From Candidatus Spongiisociaceae bacterium (lineage in GTDB: Bacteria; Actinomycetota; Acidimicrobiia; Spongiisociales; Spongiisociaceae): 64,000 nucleotides of DNA. The stretch lies in assembly GCA_965202665.1 (NCBI GenBank), contig OZ241841.1:2336001-2400000 (forward strand). The letters are read 5' to 3'. The position numbers and the translations under genes were made by a program. The notes beneath the pieces were generated by a model. The model made no database searches. It had not been told where the DNA came from and was given only the letters and a program-made list of their open reading frames with translations. This document shows, piece after piece, positions 26,108-43,839 of the stretch (within the stretch, counting starts at the first letter, position 1; each line of letters opens with the position of its first letter).

Positions 26108-26256
26108 TTTTCCTCCGAGAGGGTCTGGCCCCCCAAGTTTAGCCTGCGCCGAAACTTATGGGACCACCCGGCGGTAGTAGGGTTTCCGCAGGCGACCCGC
26201 GGCTCCGCGGGGACGCCGCTACGCGATCAAAACCATCGGAACGGGGCAACGGAAAC

Positions 26257-27321
26257 ATGGAACAGGCCAACCACGCGCAGGGGGAAAGCGGGTTTTCGTG
26301 GGCGGAGATCCTGGGCGGGCTGGGGGAGGGCCGCCACCTGACCCGGGCCCAGGCCCGGGCGGCCATGGATCGGGTGATGACCGGAGAGGCGGCCCCTTCG
26401 CAAATCGCCGCCCTCATCGTCCTGTTGCGGGCCAAAGGGGAGACGGCGGAGGAAATTCTGGGGCTGGTGGAGGGAATGCGGGCGGCGGCGGTGGCGGTGG
26501 ACTTGGGGGACGCCGACCCGGTGGACATCGTGGGAACCGGAGGGGACCGTTCCGGAACTTTCAACGTGTCCACCACCGCCTCTTTTGCGGTCGCCGGGGC
26601 GGGGGTTCCGGTCGCCAAACACGGCAACCGTTCCATGTCTTCGCAATGCGGCTCGGCCGACCTGTTGGAAGAGTTGGGGGTGGCGATCGACCTGCCCCCG
26701 GAGCGCAACCGGGAACTTTTCCGCCGCACCGGCTACGCCTTTTTCCTGGCGCCCGTCTACCACCCGGCGATGCGCTGGGCGGGGCCGGTGCGCAAAGAGC
26801 TGGGCGTGCCCACCGTGTTCAATTTTCTGGGGCCGCTCAGCAACCCGGCCGGGGTGCGCCGCTTGGCGGTGGGGACGTCGGACGGCCGGATGGCGGAGCG
26901 GATGATAGAGACGTTGCGGGCGGCGGGGGCGGTGCGGGCCTTGGTCTTCCACGGCGAGGACGGGTTGGACGAGTTGAGTTTGGCCGGTCCGTCGGTGGTG
27001 TGGGGCCTGCGGGAGGGGCGGATCACCCGTTCCGTGCTGGAACCGGCGCAGGTCGGGTTGGCGACCGCCCCCTTGGAGTCGGTGCGGGGCGGGGGGGTTT
27101 CCGACAACGCGGCCATCGCCCGGGCGGTGCTGGAAGGGCGCCCCGGACCGGCCCGGGACATGACGGTGTTGAACGCGGCCGCCGCCATCCTGGTTTCCGG
27201 GGCGGCGGACGGGTGGGAGGAGGCGGCGGAGGCGGCCCGGCGCTCTTTGGACGGCGGAGCGGCGGCGGAGGCCCTGTCCCGGGTGGTTGCGGAGAGTCGG
27301 GAACTGGCCGGGTCTTCCTGA
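26257..27321 (+). CDS. trpD: Anthranilate phosphoribosyltransferase
   Basis: DIVGTGGD, FNVST, AKHGNRS..S.CGSADLLE, GLDE. Confidence 0.95.
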   Translation: MEQANHAQGESGFSWAEILGGLGEGRHLTRAQARAAMDRVMTGEAAPSQIAALIVLLRAKGETAEEILGLVEGMRAAAVAVDLGDADPVDIVGTGGDRSGTFNVSTTASFAVAGAGVPVAKHGNRSMSSQCGSADLLEELGVAIDLPPERNRELFRRTGYAFFLAPVYHPAMRWAGPVRKELGVPTVFNFLGPLSNPAGVRRLAVGTSDGRMAERMIETLRAAGAVRALVFHGEDGLDELSLAGPSVVWGLREGRITRSVLEPAQVGLATAPLESVRGGGVSDNAAIARAVLEGRPGPARDMTVLNAAAAILVSGAADGWEEAAEAARRSLDGGAAAEALSRVVAESRELAGSS

Positions 27322-27854
27322 TGGGGCGCCGGGCCTTCGCTTGCCTGTTGGCCGGGTCGGCGCTGGCCGCGGCCTGCGGAACGGGTGAGTTTTCCGAGCC
27401 GCCCGCATCATCCGTTCCGGCCACCGGGGCCTCCCAACCGGCCGAGCCGGCGGACGAACTTGTTCCGAACGTGACCTTGCAGTTGGACGATGGAAGCAGT
27501 TGGACGGCGAGGGAGGCGGCCCGGCCCGCCCTGCTGGTGTTCTGGGCGGAATGGTGAGGGGCCTGCCGGAGGGAGTTGCCTTCCGTAGACGGTTTGGCCC
27601 GGTTGTGGGCCGGGTCGGTGGATGTGATGGCGGTGGCCTGGCAGTCCGGCTGGGAGGAAACCCGGGCGGAGGCGGAGAAACTGTTGCGCACCGGCTGGAC
27701 GCGCTGGACTTTGGACGAGGCGGCGGTAGCGGCGTTCGGCGTGGCGTCGCAACCGGTGTCGATTCTGATAGCCGACGGACGGGAGGTGCGCCGCTGGCAC
27801 GGGCCGGTCGGCGGCGATGTAATCGGATTGGTACGGGATCTGACCCGCACCTGA
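27321..27854 (+). CDS. TlpA/thioredoxin-like lipoprotein selenoprotein 1 (FWAEW-U-GAC)
   Basis: Lipobox AAAC; in-frame TGA at 27555-27557 at the first CxxC position; frame continues as a redoxin fold; hairpin 27567-27585. Confidence 0.85.
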
Positions 27855-27985
27855 CCCCCCGCTACGAGCGAACCCCTTTTCCCCACGTATCCGGCCCGGC
27901 GGCCCCGGGTTTTCAGCATACGGGTGCGGGCGCAACGAAGCCCGGCCCGCTGGGGAACAGGCCGGGCTCGGTCGGGGGTGGCGGG

Positions 27986-28435
27986 TTACTTTTCCGCCGC
28001 GGATGGGTCGGCGATGGACCGGATCCTCTCCGGATTGTCCGGAACGGGGACGGACGGAGCCGGGCGGGGCGGAGCGGGTTCGGGAGGGACGGGATGGCCG
28101 TCGGTTATCCGCAACCGGTACATTACGACTTTCATGTTCCCCTCCACATCTCGAACTCGGTTATCAATGGTCAGCAGCCGGTCCTCGACTCGCTGAGTGC
28201 CGTTCGCCAGCCGGTTGGATTCCTCTCGGATTTTGCCTTCCAGGGAGGTTCTGGCCTCTTTGAGGTCGTCGGCAACCTTCTGGGTGTTGGCCTCCTGCCG
28301 GTTGGATTCCCGCAGGATCATATCCTCCAGTCCCTTCGCCAATTGGCGGGTGTCCTTCCGTTGCAAAACGAAGAACACCGTAAGCCCGCCGATGGTCGTC
28401 AGGGCGCCGGATATGCTGGCGTAGAACTCTTCCAT
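27986..28435 (-). CDS. Single-TM coiled-coil protein, related to the 38.9-43.8 kb array
   Basis: N-terminal TM, heptad repeats, MKVV..RL.I, C-terminal AAEK as in the array genes. Confidence 0.65.
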   Translation of the reverse strand: MEEFYASISGALTTIGGLTVFFVLQRKDTRQLAKGLEDMILRESNRQEANTQKVADDLKEARTSLEGKIREESNRLANGTQRVEDRLLTIDNRVRDVEGNMKVVMYRLRITDGHPVPPEPAPPRPAPSVPVPDNPERIRSIADPSAAEK

Positions 28436-28636
28436 GCTCGTACCTTACCCTTTCTGCGTCAGGGTGCGCGCCATTCGGGCCGCGCTTCTTACAATATGCA
28501 ACATAAGGTAAAAAAACGACGACGACAACCCCCTTGTTTCAAGAAACGGCCAAAACGCGAAAAAATCTTTAGCCCGTTGGGCGCCAACCACGGCAAAATC
28601 GTTCATATACCGCGCCGGACGGACTATTCTGGGGAT

Positions 28637-29179
28637 ATGAAACCCCGCATAGGTTTCGCAACGGCGATCGGTTTGATGCTGGCGGTCGCCGCCTGCGGGT
28701 CCGGATCCGAGCCAGCCGGGACGGCCTCCTCCGCCCCGCCGGTTCAGGAAACCCCCTCCGCCCCGTCGGGACCGGCCGCCCCCGCCGTCTCCTTGCAGTT
28801 GGACGACGGTTCCTCGTTTGATTCTTCGCAGGCCGTCCGGCCCACCCTGTACGTGTTCTGGGCGGAATGGTGACCGACCTGTCAGCGGGAGTTGCCCGCT
28901 GTGGACGGCCTGGCGGCGGAGTACGAGGGCCGGGCGGACGTGATCGCGGTGGCCTGGAAGGCGTCTTTGGCGGACACTTCCGCCGCCGCCCGGCGGCTGT
29001 TGACCAGCGGGGCGACGCGCTGGGCCTTGGATGAGGATGAAAGCGTGTTCGCCGCCTTCGAAGTCGGCTACCAGCCGGTGTCGGCCCTGGTCCATCAGGG
29101 CGTGGAAATCGGACGTTGGCACGGGGAGGTTCCCATCTCCGAGGTGCGCGCCCTGTTAGATGAGGCGGTGCGGCTGTGA
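28637..29179 (+). CDS. TlpA/thioredoxin-like lipoprotein selenoprotein 2 (FWAEW-U-PTC)
   Basis: Lipobox VAAC; in-frame TGA at 28871-28873; hairpin 28883-28901. Confidence 0.87.
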
Positions 29180-30285
29180 GCCGGGCCGGATGGGGGAGGG
29201 CCCTCGTCCTCCTGGCGATTCTGGCGGTGATCGCCGCCGCCTGCGGCTCCGGGGCCGCGCCCGAGTCGGCTTCTCCAACCGAAGCGGAGGCCCCGCCCGC
29301 CCCGGCGACGACCGCCGCCCCGCCCGCAACCACGGCGGACTCCGCGGCGCCGGGTTCAACCGCCGTTGCGCCCGAATCGCCCCAACCGGAAGTTTCCACT
29401 ACCCCCGCCCCCGCCCAACCCGAAGCCGAGGCCCCCGCCGAGGAAGCAACCGAGGATGTCCCCGCAACCACCGAAGCCCCTACCTCCACCACCGCAACGG
29501 AAACCACCGTCGCCGCGCCGGCCACTACATCGACCACCGCTACTTCCGCCGTCGCCTCCACCACCGCCGCGACGACCACCGCGGTGGTTTCCGCCGATCC
29601 CGATCCCACCACCACCGTTCCCGCAACCACCACGACCACTACGACCACGGCCGTCACCACCACGACCACGGCCGCCACCACTACCGTCGCAACCACCACT
29701 ACGACGACCGCTCCCACCACGACGACAACCACCACAACCACTACCGCTCCCGCCAGGACGACCACCACCAGGGCCGCCCCTGCCACCACCAGGGCCGCCC
29801 CTGCCACCACCAGGGCCGCGCCTACCACCACGACCACCACCACGCCTACCACCACGACCACCACCCGGCCCCGGCCGCAGGGTCCGGCCGCCCCGTCGGT
29901 GACGCTGGCCCTCGACGATGGTTCCACTTTTAGTTCAGCCAACGCCTCCCGGCCCATCCTCTACGTGTTCTGGGCGGAATGGTGACCGACCTGTCAGCGG
30001 GAGTTGCCCGCTGTGGACAATCTGGCGAGGGAGTACCGGGGGCGGGTGGACGTGATCGCGGTGGCCTGGAAAGCCTCCTACGACGACACGGCCTCCCGGG
30101 CCCGGAGCCTGCTGACCAGCGGCGCGGTGCGCTGGGGGCTGGACGAAGACCAGAGCATTTTCGGAGCGTTCGGTTTTTCCTACCAGCCCAATATGGCTTT
30201 GGTCAGCCAAGGCGTGCTGGTGAAAAAATGGATAGGGGCCGCCCCCATGCAGGATCTGCGGGCCGAAATAAACAATCTCTTGTGA
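29176..30285 (+). CDS. TlpA/thioredoxin-like lipoprotein selenoprotein 3 with long Thr/Ala/Pro stalk
   Basis: Lipobox AAAC; ~200-aa Thr-rich linker; in-frame TGA at 29983-29985; hairpin 29995-30013. Confidence 0.87.
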
Positions 30286-31499
30286 CAGCGCCACCCCCCA
30301 AAGTATTGGAGTCCCTCCCGCCGGCGGATGGACCCGCCGCGGACGGGGGCGGGACTCCCGAAGGAAACCCGCCGCTCCGGGTGGTCAAAGAGTTTTGGAC
30401 GGCCCGGCAAAGGCGGGGGCACAGCCTGCACGAGATAAGCTACCGGGCCTGTTTCAAGCCGCAACTGCCCGAATTTTTCATCGAAAAATACACCAGGCAG
30501 GGCGATTTGGTGGCGGACCCTTTTCTGGGACGGGGAACCACCCCGTTGCAAGCCCATCTGATGGATCGGCGGGCGGCGGGCAGCGACGTCAACCCGCTGT
30601 GCGTAATGCTGGCCCGCCCCCGGTTTGACCCGCCTCCCCTCCGCGAAGCGGAAGCCAGGTTGCGGGAAATCCTGGACGCCGGCGGCGATGTTGCGGACGC
30701 CGCCGCCCCCGAGGATGACCTGCTCGCCTTCTACCACCCGGACACCTTGTCGCAACTTTTGATCCTCCGGCGGTGGTTCATGGACCGGGAGCGGGAGGAC
30801 GGGTTGGATCGCACCGACGATTGGCTCCGCATGGTTTGCCTGAATCGCCTGAGCGGGCATTCGCCCGGGTTTTTCTCGGTGCGCACCATGCCGCCCAACC
30901 AGGCGGTGTCCGCCGAGTCGCAACGCCGCATCAACCAGCGGCAAGATCAAACCCCCGGCCCCAAGGACATCGTTGACATCGTGATGAGAAAATCCCGTTC
31001 GCTGTTGCGCACCGGATATCCCGCTCCGCAAACGCCGGCCCCTCCCATGTTGCGCACCGCCACCGCCGACCACCTCTTCTACCTAGCCGACGGCTCGGTT
31101 GATTTAGTAGTCACTTCTCCCCCTTTTCTCAACATTGTGGACTACCGCAAAGACAATTGGCTACGGTGTTGGTTCGCAGGCGTTGATGTTAGCGAAGTTC
31201 AAATAAGCGGTTTTTCCTCGGTCACCGAATGGAGGGGTTTTGTCCGCAACGCCCTGCGGGAAATGTCCCGGGTGGTGCGAGCGGGCGGCCACATAGCGTT
31301 TGAGGTGGGGGAGGTGCGCAACGGAGAGGTGCTGCTAGAAGAACAAGTGCTACAAGCATCGGAAGGGTTGCCCCTGATACCACGCGAGGTGCTGGTCAAC
31401 CAACAAAATTTCACAAAAACCTCCAACCTGTGGGGCGTAGACAACAACAACGGCGGCACCAACACCAACCGAGTAGTGCTTCTACAAAGAGCAAACTAA
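30282..31499 (+). CDS. Amino-DNA methyltransferase (probably m4C; motif I before motif IV)
   Basis: DPFLGRGTT followed by VTSPPF; GTGA overlap with the upstream gene. Confidence 0.85.
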   Translation: MTAPPPKVLESLPPADGPAADGGGTPEGNPPLRVVKEFWTARQRRGHSLHEISYRACFKPQLPEFFIEKYTRQGDLVADPFLGRGTTPLQAHLMDRRAAGSDVNPLCVMLARPRFDPPPLREAEARLREILDAGGDVADAAAPEDDLLAFYHPDTLSQLLILRRWFMDREREDGLDRTDDWLRMVCLNRLSGHSPGFFSVRTMPPNQAVSAESQRRINQRQDQTPGPKDIVDIVMRKSRSLLRTGYPAPQTPAPPMLRTATADHLFYLADGSVDLVVTSPPFLNIVDYRKDNWLRCWFAGVDVSEVQISGFSSVTEWRGFVRNALREMSRVVRAGGHIAFEVGEVRNGEVLLEEQVLQASEGLPLIPREVLVNQQNFTKTSNLWGVDNNNGGTNTNRVVLLQRAN

Positions 31500-32119
31500 T
31501 GACTACTAAGCCTTTCTATCAAGTTATCAAACACCTCACAGGATATAAGGTGTTTCCTTTGGCTAACGCTGATTTGGCTAACGCTGATTTGGCTAACGCT
31601 GATTCAGATTCGCCTGTTATCGATACGTTGCAACTCGTTGCGGATACGGTTGCTGAAGATATAACGCTAAACCCTATCACAAGGCCGCGTCCCAATGAAG
31701 TTGGCAATGACGTGAAGAAAAGAGTTGGTAAAGTATTAAAAGCAGAAAATAAAGTTAACATTATCCCTATGGCTAAAAAGGCAGATTATCTAGAGCCAGC
31801 AGGTTATCCAGATTTCAAGATTCGTATTGCTGACGAAATATATTTTTTGGAATGCAAGACCTTTCAATCTGACCAAAAGAAAAAATCAATGAGAAGTTTT
31901 TATTGTTCTGATGGTCCCTCTATACGAGAAAAAATTAACTGCGATGCTATTCATATTTTGATGTCCTTTGAAATGAGAAATCAAGGGAATAAATATACTC
32001 CGCTATCTTATAGATTGGTTGATTTATATGATTTGCCTTGCACGCTCAAAAAGGAGTGGAATTCAAGCAATACAGAATTATACGCGTCGGGCAGAATTTT
32101 AGCTAAAAAGAATGTATAG
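31499..32119 (+). CDS. PD-(D/E)xK restriction endonuclease-like protein
   Basis: GYPDFKI...FLECKT; AT-rich; overlaps the MTase stop. Confidence 0.75.
   Translation: MTTKPFYQVIKHLTGYKVFPLANADLANADLANADSDSPVIDTLQLVADTVAEDITLNPITRPRPNEVGNDVKKRVGKVLKAENKVNIIPMAKKADYLEPAGYPDFKIRIADEIYFLECKTFQSDQKKKSMRSFYCSDGPSIREKINCDAIHILMSFEMRNQGNKYTPLSYRLVDLYDLPCTLKKEWNSSNTELYASGRILAKKNV
31558..31603 (+). repeat. 15-bp tandem repeat x3 (TTTGGCTAACGCTGA; LANAD x3)
   Basis: Directly visible in the sequence. Confidence 0.9.
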
Positions 32120-32157
32120 ATTTCCTTAGCTGGGTTTGGTGGGGAAGGAGGCGGGGG

Positions 32158-32754
32158 TTAGGGTTGGTCGGGGTTTTGGCGGTATTCGCCTACCTGCCGG
32201 GCTTCCACCGTGGCCCCGGCCAGGATTTCCTCTACGGCGGAGCTTAGGGTGAGCGCGTCGGTTTCGCCTATGAGTTTTCCAACCACCATCCCGTCTCGCA
32301 GGAAAATCGTTTCCGGGATTCCGAACACCCCCAGCTCGATGGCCGCCCGGGAGCCGGGGTCGGTCAAATAAAGAGTGTTCCCCCCCCGGCCCGCCTCGTC
32401 CAGGTAGTCCCGGGCTTCCTCCGCGGATTCCAAGAAAACAATCCCCAGGAAACGCACCGACCGGTCGGCGTAAGCCTCCGCCGCGGCTATCAAATCGGCG
32501 TGTTCGTTGCGGCACTGCAGGCACCAGGAGGCGAAAAAGTTGACCGCCGTCGCCCGGTGGGCGGCCGCCTCCGACCGCAGGTTGACCGGCTCCCCCCCGT
32601 CCAGGGAGGGCAGGGTCAGGTCGGGGACGGCCACCCCCACCACCGGCGAAAGCTCCTGTTCGGCGTTGAAATCGAAGTTGGAGGCCAGCACCGCCGCCGC
32701 CAAACCGATGACCGCCAGCCCGCCCCCCAGCAGAAACAGCCCTTTGCGGCTCAT
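32158..32754 (-). CDS. ccmG: Thiol:disulfide oxidoreductase CcmG/DsbE
   Basis: NFFASWCLQC, GVFGIPET; last gene of the ccm operon. Confidence 0.85.
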   Translation of the reverse strand: MSRKGLFLLGGGLAVIGLAAAVLASNFDFNAEQELSPVVGVAVPDLTLPSLDGGEPVNLRSEAAAHRATAVNFFASWCLQCRNEHADLIAAAEAYADRSVRFLGIVFLESAEEARDYLDEAGRGGNTLYLTDPGSRAAIELGVFGIPETIFLRDGMVVGKLIGETDALTLSSAVEEILAGATVEARQVGEYRQNPDQP

Positions 32755-38009: not shown

Positions 38010-38677
38010 CAGGCGGCGGCGGGAGGGTCGGCCAAAGTTCCGTCTTCCACGCTCACGGCGCGGGTGAGCAGGGGGGCAATCCGGCGGGGGTCGTGGGAGA
38101 CCAGCACCGCCGCCCCGCCCGCCTGCAAGGTTCGGTTCACCGCCAGTTCCACCAGCGGGGCGGAGGCGGCGTCCAGGCCGGCGTGCGGTTCGTCCAACAA
38201 CAACAGCCGGGGGGTCCAGGTCAGCAGGCGGGCGAATTCGGCCCGGCGCCGCATGCCCGCCGAGCAGTCCCCCGCCCGCCGGTGGGCCGCCTCCGCCAGC
38301 CCCGCCGTCCGCAACGGGTCGGGAGGGGGGGAGGGGGGGAGGGGGCCGCGCAACCGGTGGATTATTTCCAGGTTTTCCCGCAGGGTGAGTTCCGGCCACA
38401 GGGCCGGGACATGGCCGATGAGGGCGATGCGGCGGCGGATGGAGGCCGTCCGGTCGGGGTCGGAGTGGCCGGTCAGTCCCAAAATGTCATAGCGTCCGGA
38501 GGAGGGTTTGACGAGGGCGGCCAGCAACCGGAGCAAGGTGGTTTTCCCCGCCCCGTTGGGGCCGGAAACGCCCAGCGCCTCGCCCGGATGCAGGACGAGG
38601 GCCAGGTCGCGCAGGATCACCGTGCGTGCGGTGCGATATGAGACATCCTGCAGGGAAACCAACGGGGGAGCGGCCAC
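38009..38677 (-). CDS. ccmA: Heme ABC exporter ATPase CcmA
   Basis: GPNGAGKTT, SAGMRRR, LLLDEP; TACACT -10 lies 7 nt before the GTG (leaderless). Confidence 0.88.
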   Translation of the reverse strand: MAAPPLVSLQDVSYRTARTVILRDLALVLHPGEALGVSGPNGAGKTTLLRLLAALVKPSSGRYDILGLTGHSDPDRTASIRRRIALIGHVPALWPELTLRENLEIIHRLRGPLPPSPPPDPLRTAGLAEAAHRRAGDCSAGMRRRAEFARLLTWTPRLLLLDEPHAGLDAASAPLVELAVNRTLQAGGAAVLVSHDPRRIAPLLTRAVSVEDGTLADPPAAA

Positions 38678-38921
38678 CTAGCGGAGTGTAGAGGGTGTCG
38701 CCGCCCGCAGGCGCGCATTGGGCGGCGATGAGGGGCGCCGATCGGGGCGGGGTGCCTGTCATCCGGTCCGATTTTCCCAGGTGAGAGGGGTTTTTCGCTA
38801 TTTTTGCATGATGTTTGTAGAAGGGGGTTGTTTTTTGTCATTGTTTTAGGTTATATTAGTAGGTAATGATACGGCGCGGGCGAAATCCCGTGTATACTGG
38901 CCGAGAGCAAAGGAGCATGCC

Positions 38922-39485
38922 GTGAACGGTGAATTCCTATACAACCTGTATTTGATAGTCGGGCTGTTCGTAGCCCTGACCACGGTGGTCTGGCTGTTCA
39001 CCGCCGCCAACCGGCGAGCTATCCAGCAGGTCAAGGCCGACCTGGAGCGGGATATCCGCCGGGTGGACAAGAACGTCCGTCGGGTGGAGAAAGGCGTCCG
39101 TCGGGACATCCGCCGGGTGGACAAGCGGCTGTCGCGGGAGATCCGGAAGACGAATCGGGAGGCTCGGGAGACGAATAAGTCGGTGTGGCGGTTGCGGGTG
39201 GATATGCAGGTGGTCAAGGATCGCTTGAACATAGGGGAGGATTCCCGCCCGGTCGATTCCGCTCCGGTTGAGGCTGGTCCCGAGGCGGAGTTGTCCGTAT
39301 CGTCTGATTCGGCTGCGACTGGCCCGGCGCCTGGGTCGCCTGAGTCGGGTTCGGGTGTTTCCGTTCCGGTTGCGGATGACGCTGTGTCGAGGCCTGTCGG
39401 TTCGCGGGCGGCTGCGCACCGGCAGGGCGGGGCCGGGGCGGTTCCGTCTGGGATCACCGCCCCTCTCCCGGCTGCTGAAAAGTAA
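38922..39485 (+). CDS. TM-anchored coiled-coil repeat protein 1
   Basis: TATACT -10, AAGGAG RBS, GTG start; MNGEFLYNLY...DIRRVDK repeats...AAEK. Confidence 0.75.
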   Translation: MNGEFLYNLYLIVGLFVALTTVVWLFTAANRRAIQQVKADLERDIRRVDKNVRRVEKGVRRDIRRVDKRLSREIRKTNREARETNKSVWRLRVDMQVVKDRLNIGEDSRPVDSAPVEAGPEAELSVSSDSAATGPAPGSPESGSGVSVPVADDAVSRPVGSRAAAHRQGGAGAVPSGITAPLPAAEK

Positions 39486-39742
39486 TCCTGCCGAGTTCCG
39501 GGAAACCAGCGGGGGTGTTGCCGTCGGGAGGCGCGCATTGGCTGGCGATGAGGGGGCGTCGATCGGGGCGGGGTCCCCGTCATTCAGTCTGATTTTCCCA
39601 GGTGAGAGGGGTTTTTCGCTATTTTCGCATGATGTTTGTAGAAGGGGGTTGTTTTTTGTCATTGTTTTAGGTTATATTAGTAGGTAATGATACGGCGCGG
39701 GCGAAATCCCGTGTATACTGGCCGAGAGCAAAGGAGCATGCC

Positions 39743-40294
39743 GTGAACGGTGAATTCCTATACAACCTGTATTTGATAGTCGGGCTGTTCGTAGCCTTGA
39801 CCACGGTCATAGGGGTGGTCGCCATCGTCGGCTGGCGCGCTTTCCAGCGGCTGGAGGGTGACATCCGCCGGGTGGAGAAGGGCGTCCGTCGGGTGGAGAA
39901 GGGCGTCCGTCGGGACATCCGCCGGGTGGACAAGAACGTTCGTCGGGTGGACAAGCGGCTGTCGCGGGAGATCCGGGAGACGAATAAGTCGGTATGGCGG
40001 TTGCGGGTGGATATGCAGGTGGTCAAGGATCGCTTGAACATAGGGGAGGATTCCCGCCCGGTCGCTTCCGCTCCGGTTGAGGCCGATCCCGAGGCGGGTT
40101 CGTCCGCATCGTCTGATTCGGTTGCGGTTGGTCCGGCGCCTGGGTCGTCTGAGTCGGGTTCGGGTGTTTCCGTTCCGGTTGCGGATGACGCTGTGTCGAG
40201 GCCTGTCGGTTCGCGGGCGGCTGCGCATCGGCAGGGCGGGGCCGGGGCGGTTCCGTCTGGAATCACCGCCCCCCTCCCGGCGGCTGAAAAGTAG
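39743..40294 (+). CDS. TM-anchored coiled-coil repeat protein 2
   Basis: Paralog of 38922-39485. Confidence 0.75.
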   Translation: MNGEFLYNLYLIVGLFVALTTVIGVVAIVGWRAFQRLEGDIRRVEKGVRRVEKGVRRDIRRVDKNVRRVDKRLSREIRETNKSVWRLRVDMQVVKDRLNIGEDSRPVASAPVEADPEAGSSASSDSVAVGPAPGSSESGSGVSVPVADDAVSRPVGSRAAAHRQGGAGAVPSGITAPLPAAEK

Positions 40295-40353
40295 TCTCGC
40301 CGTGTTCTGCCTTGCTTCGGCCCCTTCTCAGACTGGGGGCAAAGGAGCATGCC

Positions 40354-40740
40354 GTGAACGGTGAATTCCTATACAACCTGTATTTGGTAGGCGGGCTGTT
40401 CGTCGCCATGACCACGGTCATAGGGCTGGTCGCCACCGTCGGTTGGCGAGCTATCCAGGGGCTGGCGGCCGACATCAAGGAGACCAAGGACGATGTCAAG
40501 GAGGTCAAGGCTGACCTCAAGAAGACCAAGGACGACCTGGAGCGGGACATCCGCCGGGTGGACGAGAACGTCCGTCGCCTCCGCCGCGCACGCCTCCGCC
40601 GCGCAAGTACGGCGCATCTTCACCACCGGTTGCGCCGAGTTGGAAATCTCCGTTGCCGAAACCGGCCAATCGGCGACCGCGCGGGCGGTATGAACCCGGC
40701 ATGCGGCCCACCCGCTCCAACCCCCGGTTGCGGACCATAG
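40354..40740 (+). pseudogene. TM-anchored coiled-coil paralog 3, 5' half interrupted by an insertion near 40580
   Basis: Family similarity stops after DIRRVDENVRR; matching 3' half resumes near 42205. Confidence 0.6.
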
Positions 40741-40828
40741 CCCGGAGCCGCCGTCCAAATGAGCGACATAGGGGCAACGTTAACCGATCGACGGCCAATA
40801 TGGACGGGTTTGCCCCCCGGGCGTTAAT

Positions 40829-41446
40829 ATGGGGGGCGCGACGCGGAGACGAGGTGGTAACGTTGGAGAGCGGACGAAAGGAGGCGAACTGGCCGGCGGG
40901 GATTCCCGGGTTCGCCTGGAGATGGGGAGCGTCCCCGGCAGTCGCAACCCGCCCCTCTCCCCGCAGCCGACCGAAGGCGTAGCGGTTGCGTTGGATGGGG
41001 ACAGCTTCGACCGGGCCTCCTACATTGCGGGGTTCGCTGCGACCGACGAGGCTCGGCCCGTGCTTATGCAGGTGGAGATATTCCAGGAGATGGGCGTGGT
41101 GCGGCTGGCCGCCACCGACTCCTATCGGCTGGGAGTCCACCGGGTGGAGCGCATCTCCCCGCCCGGCAAATTCCGGGCCTGGATGCCCGCCGTGCTGATC
41201 AAGGCGGCGGCCAAGTTGGACGGGGATGAAGTGAAAGTGGAGATAGACGGGGAACGGGCGGTGGTAACCCGCGGCCCGGCCCGGCTGTGGGCGGGGCATC
41301 TCCACCGGGCGGACAGCGACTTCCCCTACGTCAACTGGCGCGGTTTTATGAAGAAACGCCCGGCCCGGGTCGGCGCGGTTCTCAAAAACCCCCGGGAGAC
41401 GGCGGAGCGGATTCGCAGCCCGTTTAGGTTATCCCAGCGTTCGTAG
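40829..41446 (+). pseudogene. DNA polymerase III beta-clamp (DnaN)-like fragment
   Basis: FAATDEARPVL...VRLAATDSYRL...FP resembles the DnaN middle domain; too short for a full clamp. Confidence 0.6.
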
Positions 41447-41580
41447 TTCAAGCGTTTAACATACCAAATATGCTGTTCTTATCTTACGGGCAGGTTTACG
41501 CCGGGGAATCCCGCGAAGACCCTCAGGCGCGTCCCGTCTCCGTTCCCGGCCTGGGAGATGGACGACTGAAAGAGAAAAAA

Positions 41581-42024
41581 ATGTCGACCCGCGACCCGGG
41601 CGGCTACTGGTGGAACAAAAACTCCGAGGACGGCTGCCGTCTTTACGTGGGCGGCGGGCACCGCCAAGACGGACTGTTCCTGCTCAGCGACGGCTGGCTG
41701 TTCTCCCTCCAAGACCCCAGCGAGGACGGAACGGAAGCCGTTTTGGAAAGACTGACCCTCTCCGCAACCCCCCCGCTGTCACCGTCCGACAGCCTGCAGG
41801 GAGCGTTTACAGATCCGGAGGGGAAAGAGGTGGCGGTGTCCTGGTCGAGGGCTATGGGAACCGGAAGGAGAGGCAAATTGAAGCGGGGTCACGCCCCCTC
41901 TTCCGCCATCAAATCCTATCAGAGCCGCACCGCCGACATCTGGACCGGTGCGGAAACGAGGCGGCGGAGCGGGGGTATTCGGGGCCGTTCGGGGGGAGGA
42001 TTTTCTTTGACGGGAAAGAGGTGA
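41581..42024 (+). CDS. Hypothetical protein within the insertion
   Basis: ATG after a purine-rich stretch; no recognised motif. Confidence 0.35.
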   Translation: MSTRDPGGYWWNKNSEDGCRLYVGGGHRQDGLFLLSDGWLFSLQDPSEDGTEAVLERLTLSATPPLSPSDSLQGAFTDPEGKEVAVSWSRAMGTGRRGKLKRGHAPSSAIKSYQSRTADIWTGAETRRRSGGIRGRSGGGFSLTGKR

Positions 42025-42204
42025 CCGCCTCCGGCCCCGCCGCCGAGGGTTTGCCGGAACGCACCCGGAGGTTGTATACGGATAACCTCACTAATCACGA
42101 TCGGGCGGAGCGGAAGCATTGTTACGAGCTGTTGCGGGACGGGCGGGCTAAGCATCCGTGGCAACACGAGGAATCGTCCGAGCCGGGTTCGGGTGTTTCC
42201 GCAA

Positions 42205-42586
42205 CGACCTGGAGCGGGACATCCGCCGGGTGGGTAAGCGGCTGTCGCGGGAGATCCGGAAGACGAATAAGTCGGTGTGGTCGTCGCGGGTGGAAATGGT
42301 GGATATGCAGGCGGTCAAGGATCGATTGAACATAGGAACCGATTTCCGCCCGGTCGCTCCCGCTCCGGTTGAGGCCGATCCCGAGGCGGGTTCGTCCGCA
42401 TCGCCTGATTCGGTTGCGACTGGTCCGGCGCCTGGGTTGTCTGAGTCGGGTTCGGGTATTTCCGTTCCGGTTGCGGATGACGCTGTGTCGAGGCCTGTCG
42501 GTTCGCGGGCGGCTGCGCACCGGCAGGGTGGGGCCGGGGCGGTTCCGTTTGGGATCACCGCCCCCCTCCCGGCGGCTGAAAAGTAG
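42205..42586 (+). pseudogene. 3' half of a TM/coiled-coil paralog (no TM or start)
   Basis: DLERDIRRV...AAEK, near-identical to the array gene 3' ends. Confidence 0.6.
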
Positions 42587-42864
42587 TCCCTGCTGAGTTC
42601 CAGCGGGGGAGCGGCTAGCTAGCGGAGTGTAGAGGGTGTCGCCGCCCGCAGGCGCGCATTGGTCGGCGACGAGGGGGCGCCGATCGGGGCGGGGTGCCTG
42701 TCATTCAGTCTGATTTTCCCAGGTGAGAGGGGTTTTTCGCTATTTTTGCGTGAGATTTGTAGAAAGGGGGTTGTTTTTTGTCATTGTTTTAGGTTATATT
42801 AGTAGGTAATGATACGGCGCGGGCGAAATCCCGTGTATACTGGCCGAGAGCAAAGGAGCATGCC

Positions 42865-43395
42865 GTGAACGGTGAATTCCTATACAACCTGTATTTGATA
42901 GTCGGGCTGTTCGTAGCCTTGACCACGGTCATAGGGGTGGTCGCCATCGTCGGTTGGCGAGCTTTCCAGCGGCTGGAGAGTGACATCCGTCGGGTGGAGA
43001 AGGGTGTCCGTCGGGACATCCGTCGGGTGGACAAGCGGCTGTCGCGGGAGATCCGGAAGACGAATCGGCAGGTTCGGAAGACGAATGAGTCGGTGTGGTG
43101 GTTGTGGGCGGATATGCAGGTGGTCAAGGATCGCTTGAACATAGGAGCCGATTCCCGCCCGGTCGCTTCCGCTCCGGTTGCGTCCGATCCCGAGGCGGGT
43201 TCGTCCGCATCGTCCGATTCGGTTGTGACTGGTCCGGCGCCTGGGTCGTCCGAGTCGGGTTCGGGTGTTTCCGTTCCGGTTGCGGATGACACTGTGTCGA
43301 GGCCTGTCGGTTCGCGGGCGGCTGCGCATCGGCAGGGCGGGGCCGGGGCGGTTCCGTCTGGAATCGTCGCCCCCCTCCCGGCGGCTGAAAAGTAA
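42865..43395 (+). CDS. TM-anchored coiled-coil repeat protein 4
   Basis: Paralog with the full leader. Confidence 0.75.
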   Translation: MNGEFLYNLYLIVGLFVALTTVIGVVAIVGWRAFQRLESDIRRVEKGVRRDIRRVDKRLSREIRKTNRQVRKTNESVWWLWADMQVVKDRLNIGADSRPVASAPVASDPEAGSSASSDSVVTGPAPGSSESGSGVSVPVADDTVSRPVGSRAAAHRQGGAGAVPSGIVAPLPAAEK

Positions 43396-43455
43396 TCGGG
43401 CCGTGTTCCGACTCGCCTCGCCCTCTTCTTGGATTGGGGAGCAAGGAGCGATGTC

Positions 43456-43839
43456 TTGAGGGGTGATTTCCTACAAAACCTGTATCTGATGATTGGGCTG
43501 TTCGTCGCCTTGACCACGGTCATCTGGCTGTTCGCCGTAGCCGAGCGGCGCGCTATCCGGCGGTTGGCGGACGACGTCAAGGGTTTGAAAGCCGTCGTTA
43601 AGGATTTAGATGGTGGCCTGAAACGGGAAATCCGCCGGCTGGGGAAGAGCGTCCGTCGGATGGACGAGGGGTTGTCAGGGGAGTTCCGGGGGCTGTTGCG
43701 GGAAGCTCGGAAAATGAGGAAGGGCGTGAAACATTTGCAGAAGGACATGCGGGAGGTCAAGGAGCTCTTGGGCATCGAAACCGAATCTTGCCCGAAACGG
43801 CCCCGTTCCGGCGCGGATGATCGCGGTCGGGGCCGATAG
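43456..43839 (+). CDS. TM-anchored coiled-coil repeat protein 5 (divergent)
   Basis: AAGGAG RBS, TTG start, GDFLQNLYLMIGLFVALTTV. Confidence 0.65.
   Translation: MRGDFLQNLYLMIGLFVALTTVIWLFAVAERRAIRRLADDVKGLKAVVKDLDGGLKREIRRLGKSVRRMDEGLSGEFRGLLREARKMRKGVKHLQKDMREVKELLGIETESCPKRPRSGADDRGRGR

Follow-up and report, generated by a model that had tools for sequence, protein, structure and literature searches.

A triple array of predicted selenocysteine-containing TlpA/ResA-type lipoproteins in a Candidatus Spongiisociaceae bacterium and its natural cysteine counterparts

When an in-frame TGA interrupts a redoxin gene at the position of its nucleophilic cysteine, is the gene broken or does the TGA encode selenocysteine (Sec), and what would the resulting protein do? 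This question is raised by three neighbouring genes in the genome of a Candidatus Spongiisociaceae bacterium (Acidimicrobiia), within a 64,000-nucleotide stretch referred to here as the window (NCBI GenBank assembly GCA_965202665.1, contig OZ241841.1, positions 2,336,001 to 2,400,000, forward strand). Although databases store each of the three genes in pieces, each most likely encodes a single uninterrupted protein, predicted to be a thioredoxin-like enzyme of the cell surface, and their in-frame TGAs are almost certainly decoded as Sec, judging from the sequence features described below.

Three interrupted genes for predicted lipoproteins

A preliminary description of the window had proposed three paralogs that each read FWAEW-TGA-xx-C and continue in frame into a TlpA-like fold. 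This was borne out for all three genes (copies 1 to 3; Table 1), which have 98, 101 and 99 open codons 3' of the TGA, respectively, and which, with the TGA read through, score 29, 44 and 44.7 bits against the Pfam Redoxin model (PF08534; cut-off 26.6). The three domains are 47-64% identical to one another. Each gene encodes, from N- to C-terminus, a hydrophobic segment, a lipobox Cys, a Pro/Thr/Ala/Ser-rich linker (23, 22 and 210 residues in copies 1 to 3) and a TlpA/ResA-type domain carrying the motif. The lipoboxes, also noted in the preliminary description, were found by pattern match rather than by a signal-peptide predictor in all three copies (Cys codons at 27375, 28694 and 29242), the same pattern being seen upstream in 33/33 copies of the family, and the products are very probably exported lipoproteins. 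The N-terminus of copy 1 (MGRRAF, 27321-27338) resembles a twin-arginine motif and may point to export by the Tat route, whereas those of copies 2 and 3 do not.

The motif W-x-x-W-TGA-x-x-C occurs six times among the 58,373 six-frame TGAs of the genome, and three of these occurrences are copies 1 to 3; given this rarity, the reading frames are not a matter of chance. A TGA followed by a hairpin of the type searched for was found 130 times, of which five combined a long open frame with coding scores that were positive before and after the TGA, three of them being again copies 1 to 3. The two genome-wide scans for Sec codons, of which this hairpin search was one, were not exhaustive, as both missed the Sec codon of selD.

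Table 1. Positions of the three genes, their Sec codons and hairpins, and neighbouring features in the window.
Feature	Position	Strand	Remark
Copy 1, predicted lipoprotein, 177 aa, Sec79 (U-G-A-C)	27321..27854	+	Start overlaps trpD stop; the most diverged of the three
Copy 2, predicted lipoprotein, 180 aa, Sec79 (U-P-T-C)	28637..29179	+	
Copy 3, predicted lipoprotein, 369 aa, Sec270 (U-P-T-C)	29176..30285	+	GTG start overlaps copy 2 stop
Predicted Sec codon, copy 1	27555..27557	+	No change at this codon in X3 and X6 run contigs
Predicted Sec codon, copy 2	28871..28873	+	
Predicted Sec codon, copy 3	29983..29985	+	
SECIS-type hairpin, copy 1	27567..27585	+	7 bp, AGUUG loop, -9.7 kcal/mol; one pair altered on both sides relative to the family
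SECIS-type hairpin, copy 2	28883..28901	+	7 bp, AGUUG loop, -12.2 kcal/mol
SECIS-type hairpin, copy 3	29995..30013	+	Identical to copy 2 hairpin; -12.2 kcal/mol
Copy 3 linker, 210 aa	29245..29874	+	40% Thr, 24% Ala, 13% Pro; length varies in contigs of runs X3 and X6
trpD, anthranilate phosphoribosyltransferase family	26158..27321	+	Usual upstream neighbour of the redoxin family; start codon not fixed
149-codon open reading frame (ORF)	27986..28435	-	No Pfam/NCBIfam match; interrupts the array
CxxC (CLQC) redoxin of the cytochrome c maturation (ccm) operon	32158..32751	-	Occupies the CcmG position, as the final gene of this convergent operon

Decoding of the in-frame TGAs

The proposal of a cluster of exported selenoproteins in an actinobacterium had been made dependent on the presence of Sec machinery, and the genome carries selA (E 1e-109), selB, a Sec-type selD and tRNA-Sec, all above curated cut-offs, with selA and selB adjacent and an in-frame TGA within selD itself. 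Among 61 related genomes, selA was detected in 58 and tRNA-Sec in 57 (both tallies include one unpublished genome, G043). Other likely selenoproteins of the studied genome (G000) are a formate dehydrogenase subunit and a CUAEP radical S-adenosylmethionine (SAM) protein, the latter above its NCBIfam cut-off, as well as PrdB-like and UGSC-like proteins below theirs. Sec-like in-frame TGAs lie on contig C1 at 469075 (CUAEP radical SAM protein), 839283 (UGSC-like protein, with UGAC), 1545658 (PrdB-like protein), 2010235 (formate dehydrogenase) and 1360373 (SelD), and three of these five genes have an AGUUR loop like that of the redoxins. This contig also carries a second, isolated segment of the C-terminal domain of SelB (1779858-1780031; locus L010, 3862-4086), about 7 kb from selB and between two long paralogous surface-protein genes. 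Sec machinery has been reported in another marine actinobacterial order, in a paper that contains neither redoxin nor TlpA as a word (10.64898/2026.04.03.716425).

Downstream of each TGA, a hairpin with an AGUUG loop closed by 7 bp places its loop 16 nt after the TGA. In the model of the bacterial Sec insertion sequence (bSECIS) given in PMC13188914, the loop has 3-9 nt with a G within the initial two positions, the stem has 4-16 bp, the distance from the UGA is 16-37 nt and the minimum free energy is at most -7.5; the hairpins of copies 1 to 3 agree with all five of these features. Across the family, an AGUUR loop on a stem of 6-7 bp is present in 33/33 copies. In an alignment of 32 distinct rows, 97.8% of cells were paired (35-79% in controls in which the alignment was slid), three of the seven pairs showed changes on both sides and none of 500 shuffles reached the covariation score, a score uncorrected for kinship or for constraint at the protein level; RNAalifold, unprompted, recovered six of the seven pairs. 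The hairpin loop forces the Leu codon that it contains to be TTR, as found in 33/33 copies, compared with 59/330 of the other Leu codons of the same domains. Copies 2 and 3 are identical over 57 bases around the TGA and hairpin (28850-28906 and 29962-30018) despite a synonymous divergence of about 0.74, and the two copies of locus L046 are likewise identical over 61 bases, with a Glu codon differing from that of the window copies. The identity between copies 2 and 3 may reflect either SECIS constraint or gene conversion.

The TGAs could instead be true stops in pseudogenes or split genes, or could encode Trp under a changed genetic code, as reported for UGA in one actinobacterial family (PMC13462651); databases do store the pieces as separate proteins, and one database protein (P0083) reads W at the site. 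This explanation is very nearly out of the question, since throughout an order the TGA occupies the same site and is flanked by a preserved frame, a covarying hairpin follows it and Cys takes its place in orthologs from genomes mostly devoid of selA. TGA also serves as the normal stop codon in this genome, for example in trpD and at the ends of copies 1 to 3, and no tRNA with a TCA anticodon was called other than tRNA-Sec. That the TGA falls at the nucleophilic Cys position, as first described, was upheld by the 72 full-length database matches, 71 of which have C at this residue and the remaining one W (P0083).

Fragments in sequence databases

Standard annotation had been expected to yield six fragments from the three genes. 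By exact look-up, five of the six are stored separately in a protein collection, and the N-terminal piece of copy 3 was not retrieved with the single start that was used; the N-terminal fragment of copy 1, ending at the TGA, belongs to a cluster of 16 members. A profile of the family domain retrieved 572 proteins from the protein database, and 48 of the 120 matches listed are short pieces that lack the active site. A single-sequence search with full-length copy 2 gave no match at E 1e-10 among 3,132 candidates, a result uninformative on absence since the domain profile found 572. The named database homologs are from Acidimicrobiia, and among 255 pattern matches in a collection of named genomes one related locus, 69% identical, was found in a Ca. 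Spongiisociaceae metagenome-assembled genome. Reading through the TGA would correct a systematic annotation error, by which a gene of 227/301 sampled genomes of the order is stored as unnamed halves without an active site.

Distribution and replacement of Sec by Cys

The family was detected in 227 of 301 genomes of the order, with 258 matches; among the 150 of these that were listed, 140 contain the TGA and 10 lack it. In the set of 61 genomes, all 57 matches of at least 65 bits have one TGA. Outside the order, four genomes of a class-wide sample of 201 gave matches of about 70 bits. Two such matches, each with one TGA and each in a genome of another order with selB (G341:C24:25239-25634 and G373:C31:19956-20339), probably belong to a sister family of Sec redoxins, which the motif pattern did not pick up.

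Orthologs with Cys at the TGA site occur naturally. The 10 matches without TGA are all from genus g56, and in 10/10 the site reads TGY, the Leu codon is CTN and the stem is reduced to 1-3 bp, the hairpin being lost. selA was found in 2/10 of these genomes and in 20/20 TGA-form genomes of the same family, in a comparison of 30 related genomes chosen after the codon state had been seen. A strong tRNA-Sec match was obtained in the same two g56 genomes, whereas five others gave matches of only 50-56 bits, like a tRNA-Ser cross-match in the studied genome. As these two genomes keep selA and yet have Cys, reversion need not follow loss of the machinery. A further ortholog, in genome G065 of another family, has TGC at the site and a 3-bp stem, and searches of this genome for selB and selD gave no match.

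In trees based on 140 columns, with many forks open and the root not fixed, the g56 clade and G065 are each nested within the Sec forms of their respective families. A constraint uniting the eight Cys rows was rejected by the approximately unbiased (AU) test (p-AU 0.0005; 45 rows, after thinning by 10 genomes and removal of every database protein and of the second copy from G039), so that the second Cys lineage is independent of g56. Most simply, the sequences suggest that Sec is ancestral and has reverted to Cys at least twice, this direction depending on a root that is not fixed. Replacement of Sec by Cys is described as rare in bacteria and as documented mainly for FdhA and SelD (PMC13188914); the present family appears to add a case outside these two.

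Origin and maintenance of the array

Most genomes with the family, and most of the order, have a single copy, and the array arose by local duplication of this gene. The genome of another species (G001) contains a partner for copy 2 and one for copy 3, so the duplication that separated them is older than the divergence of the two species. For copy 1, which lies on a long branch, G001 has no counterpart. Genus g79 shows a separate expansion to 2-3 copies.

All three copies appear to be maintained. Among the strain differences listed (40 of the 114 in the compared stretch), 21 fall in the three genes and 18 of these are synonymous; the four differences of copy 1 in contigs of runs X3 and X6 include none in or after the TGA, and one hairpin pair of copy 1 has changed on both sides. 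The ratio of nonsynonymous to synonymous divergence (dN/dS) relative to the L046 orthologs is 0.14 for copy 2 and 0.19 for copy 3.

Predicted fold and redox role

The domain of copy 2, the copy that was modelled, was predicted (pLDDT, the model's own confidence score, 95) to adopt a thioredoxin fold with an N-terminal hairpin and an inserted helix-strand, matching ResA and Mycobacterium tuberculosis DsbF at Z 19-20.5 over 132-135 residues (ResA: Z 20.5, root-mean-square deviation (rmsd) 1.7, 135 aligned; DsbF: Z 19.5, rmsd 2.5, 132 aligned). Judged on this model, ResA and DsbF tie by fold, and DsbF is the closest solved protein by sequence. Among the NCBIfam equivalogs ResA, TlpA, DsbE, StoA and WAxxUGC, none was reached, the best scores being 18-38 bits against cut-offs of 97-522.

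Most members of the TlpA/ResA fold class are reductants, a role that also fits Sec in the first active-site position, where it tends to lower the potential and to render the Se-S form less easily reduced. The genome also has a DsbB-like gene adjoining another redoxin, with a CPHC motif, so that a candidate oxidase pair exists without copies 1 to 3. On these three grounds a reductive direction is considered reasonably probable, and the account favoured on balance is that the genes encode intact, lipid-anchored, outward-facing TlpA/ResA-type selenoenzymes acting as a CcdA-fed reductase or repair system for disulfides of envelope proteins. Following the established bacterial pathways, SelB would bind the hairpin and deliver Sec-tRNA to the UGA, and the prolipoprotein would, after export, receive its lipid on the lipobox Cys, with the linker setting the reach of the domain from the membrane (short in copies 1 and 2, long in copy 3). 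The selenolate would then attack a substrate disulfide and the second Cys would resolve the intermediate to a Se-S bond, which the product of the one CcdA-type gene of the genome would re-reduce with cytoplasmic electrons. With a selenol pKa of 5.2 as against 8.3 (PMC10779653), Sec would be the better nucleophile.

A partnership in methionine sulphoxide repair was also considered, for which the pneumococcal Etrx system provides a precedent, and was set aside, as the single MsrA of the genome has no evident signal peptide.

The main rival account retains the same selenoproteins and reverses their direction, making them DsbE/DsbF-like oxidases with Sec in place of Cys, by which disulfides would be formed in exported proteins. 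Searches with phmmer (E 4e-16 among solved structures), with a profile and with Foldseek, ranked by E-value, all place DsbF (3IOS) first, at 27-28% identity compared with about 20% for ResA, and it shares with the family the CPTC motif and a Gln-Pro loop, the candidate cis-Pro loop facing the active site, which is invariant in 29/29 rows of the family and aligned by sequence to QQP of DsbF. According to PMC3853704, DsbF acts in vitro as an oxidant and does not reduce insulin, and both DsbE and DsbF oxidise hirudin in vitro. However, DsbF and ResA are not distinguished by the structural scores, the genome has the other CPHC redoxin beside its DsbB-like gene, and the expected hindrance of Se-S reduction by Sec at the first position fits a reductant; the oxidase role is therefore considered unlikely.

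The resemblance to DsbF and the activities reported for DsbE and DsbF weigh against the CcdA-fed reductase, as do several other observations. ccdA lies about 210 kb from the three genes and was seen beside the Sec gene in none of the fetched family loci. Copy 1 has a dN/dS of 0.45-0.74 against the other copies and, with its long branch, may be diverging, either relaxed or with a new role. With regard to decoding, besides the uncorrected covariation score, 2/17 TGA-form copies and two further distant loci depart from the common hairpin by an altered loop or a short stem (in the distant loci, one altered loop and one 4-bp stem). In two TGA-form drafts, G026 (about 160 contigs) and G039 (about 120), neither selA nor selB was matched, while Sec-type selD and tRNA-Sec are present; since both assemblies are in many pieces and the studied genome has selA next to selB, one assembly gap could explain both absences in each. 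Finally, Sec decoding and redox role alike are predictions from sequence.

An extracytoplasmic role in thiol redox had been suggested together with the position of the genes next to a convergent ccm operon. The first part remains the best reading of the fold and lipobox, and the tie to ccm proved weak. If the proteins were dedicated accessory reductants for cytochrome c maturation, they would hold the CxxCH motifs of apocytochromes in the reduced state needed by the neighbouring Ccm system, as does ResA, a joint best fold match, in Bacillus, and ccm genes do lie within the fetched region in 15/20 family loci and in 9/10 Cys-form loci (the tenth being a 3-kb contig). However, the redoxin gene is on the opposite strand and convergent to ccm in 15/15 loci with ccm, making a shared transcript impossible, the ccm operon has its own CxxC CcmG, and 5/20 loci have no ccm nearby. 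trpD (14/20) and other unrelated neighbours are about as conserved, the block being simply syntenic, so that adjacency to ccm carries little functional weight. In addition, a rough scan found nine CxxCH-containing ORFs among 2,085, several of them not cytochromes, leaving little call for three extra reductants. A dedicated role in cytochrome c maturation is accordingly regarded as quite improbable, and the envelope disulfide reductase is retained as the preferred account.

A broader picture can be entertained only tentatively: an order-wide, ancestrally Sec-dependent family of envelope thiol-redox lipoproteins without a curated model, with at least two independent reversions accompanied by SECIS decay and mostly by loss of the Sec machinery. 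In the studied genome, three selenoenzymes on short or very long Thr-rich stalks might each serve a different layer of the cell surface, or might deal with oxidants coming from a host.

Neighbouring features

The array is not contiguous, the opposite-strand 149-codon ORF standing between copies 1 and 2. This ORF has a hydrophobic N-terminus and heptad-like repeats, and five tandem relatives occupy the equivalent site after trpD in G001 (L047, 10426-13676). Farther along the window, 38659-43794 holds 4-5 copies of a unit of about 800 bp with internal 21-nt repeats, 60-94% alike, possibly further small repeat-protein genes of the same kind. Between copy 3 and the end of the ccm operon, about 1.9 kb holds an N6/N4 DNA methyltransferase gene (PF01555; about 30282-31499, +), whose likely GTG start overlaps the copy 3 stop, followed by a nuclease-like unannotated ORF (31499-32119, +), which is strain-variable since contigs of runs X3, X4 and X6 skip 31493-32152. 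A scan of 27200-30500 for promoters and terminators returned no promoter-like and one terminator-like site, at or below the levels of shuffled sequence.

Relation to known systems

Literature searches turned up no paper on this redoxin family; BSepDB (PMC13326102), whose genome table gives at least 181 Acidimicrobiia occurrences, screened this class, and its online entries may hold members. UxxC redoxins were correctly described as a known selenoprotein class, being listed in Table 1 of PMC13188914 as 'Thiol-disulfide isomerase-like' and 'Redoxin family protein', of which the former dates from PMC1088965 and the latter also appears in PMC9312934. These families share with copies 1 to 3 the UxxC in a TlpA-like/Redoxin domain, the single Sec, the existence of Cys homologs and the same logic of Sec/Cys pairs with SECIS; the comparison is one of motif and domain class, the table giving no lipoprotein anchor, linker or Acidimicrobiia distribution. 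Another Sec-containing TlpA-like domain, in which Sec likewise follows a WAxx motif, is that of the ResA-like WAxxUGC selenoprotein (NF041054), which differs in having UGC rather than UxxC; copy 1 scores 18.6 bits against its cut-off of 300, and copies 2 and 3 have no listed match. Lipid-anchored exported Sec proteins have also been described, namely SaoX and SaoC (10.1101/2022.07.06.499078), which belong to a substrate-binding system of ATP-binding cassette (ABC) transport, carry CU/CC motifs and are unrelated in fold and function.

Among Cys-containing proteins, M. tuberculosis DsbF and DsbE/MPT53 (1LU4) are likewise exported actinobacterial TlpA-fold domains with a Gln before the loop Pro and W-C-P-T-C in place of W-U-P-T-C; they have Cys where Sec is predicted here, are no more than 27-28% identical, and have demonstrated oxidase activity. 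Bacillus subtilis ResA (2F9S, 1ST9) and CcmG resemble copies 1 to 3 in the fold, in an invariant Glu three residues after the second Cys and in being membrane-tethered extracytoplasmic domains, and differ in their low identity, in the score against the ResA model (32 bits, cut-off 170) and in that the window genes lie outside any cytochrome c maturation operon. As both UxxC redoxins and lipoprotein selenoproteins were already known, the present findings are useful to specialists more than surprising, and what is new is the triple array together with the Sec-to-Cys control. The matched natural Sec and Cys orthologs at one locus offer a direct test of what Sec buys an extracytoplasmic thioredoxin-fold enzyme and of how an unneeded SECIS decays.

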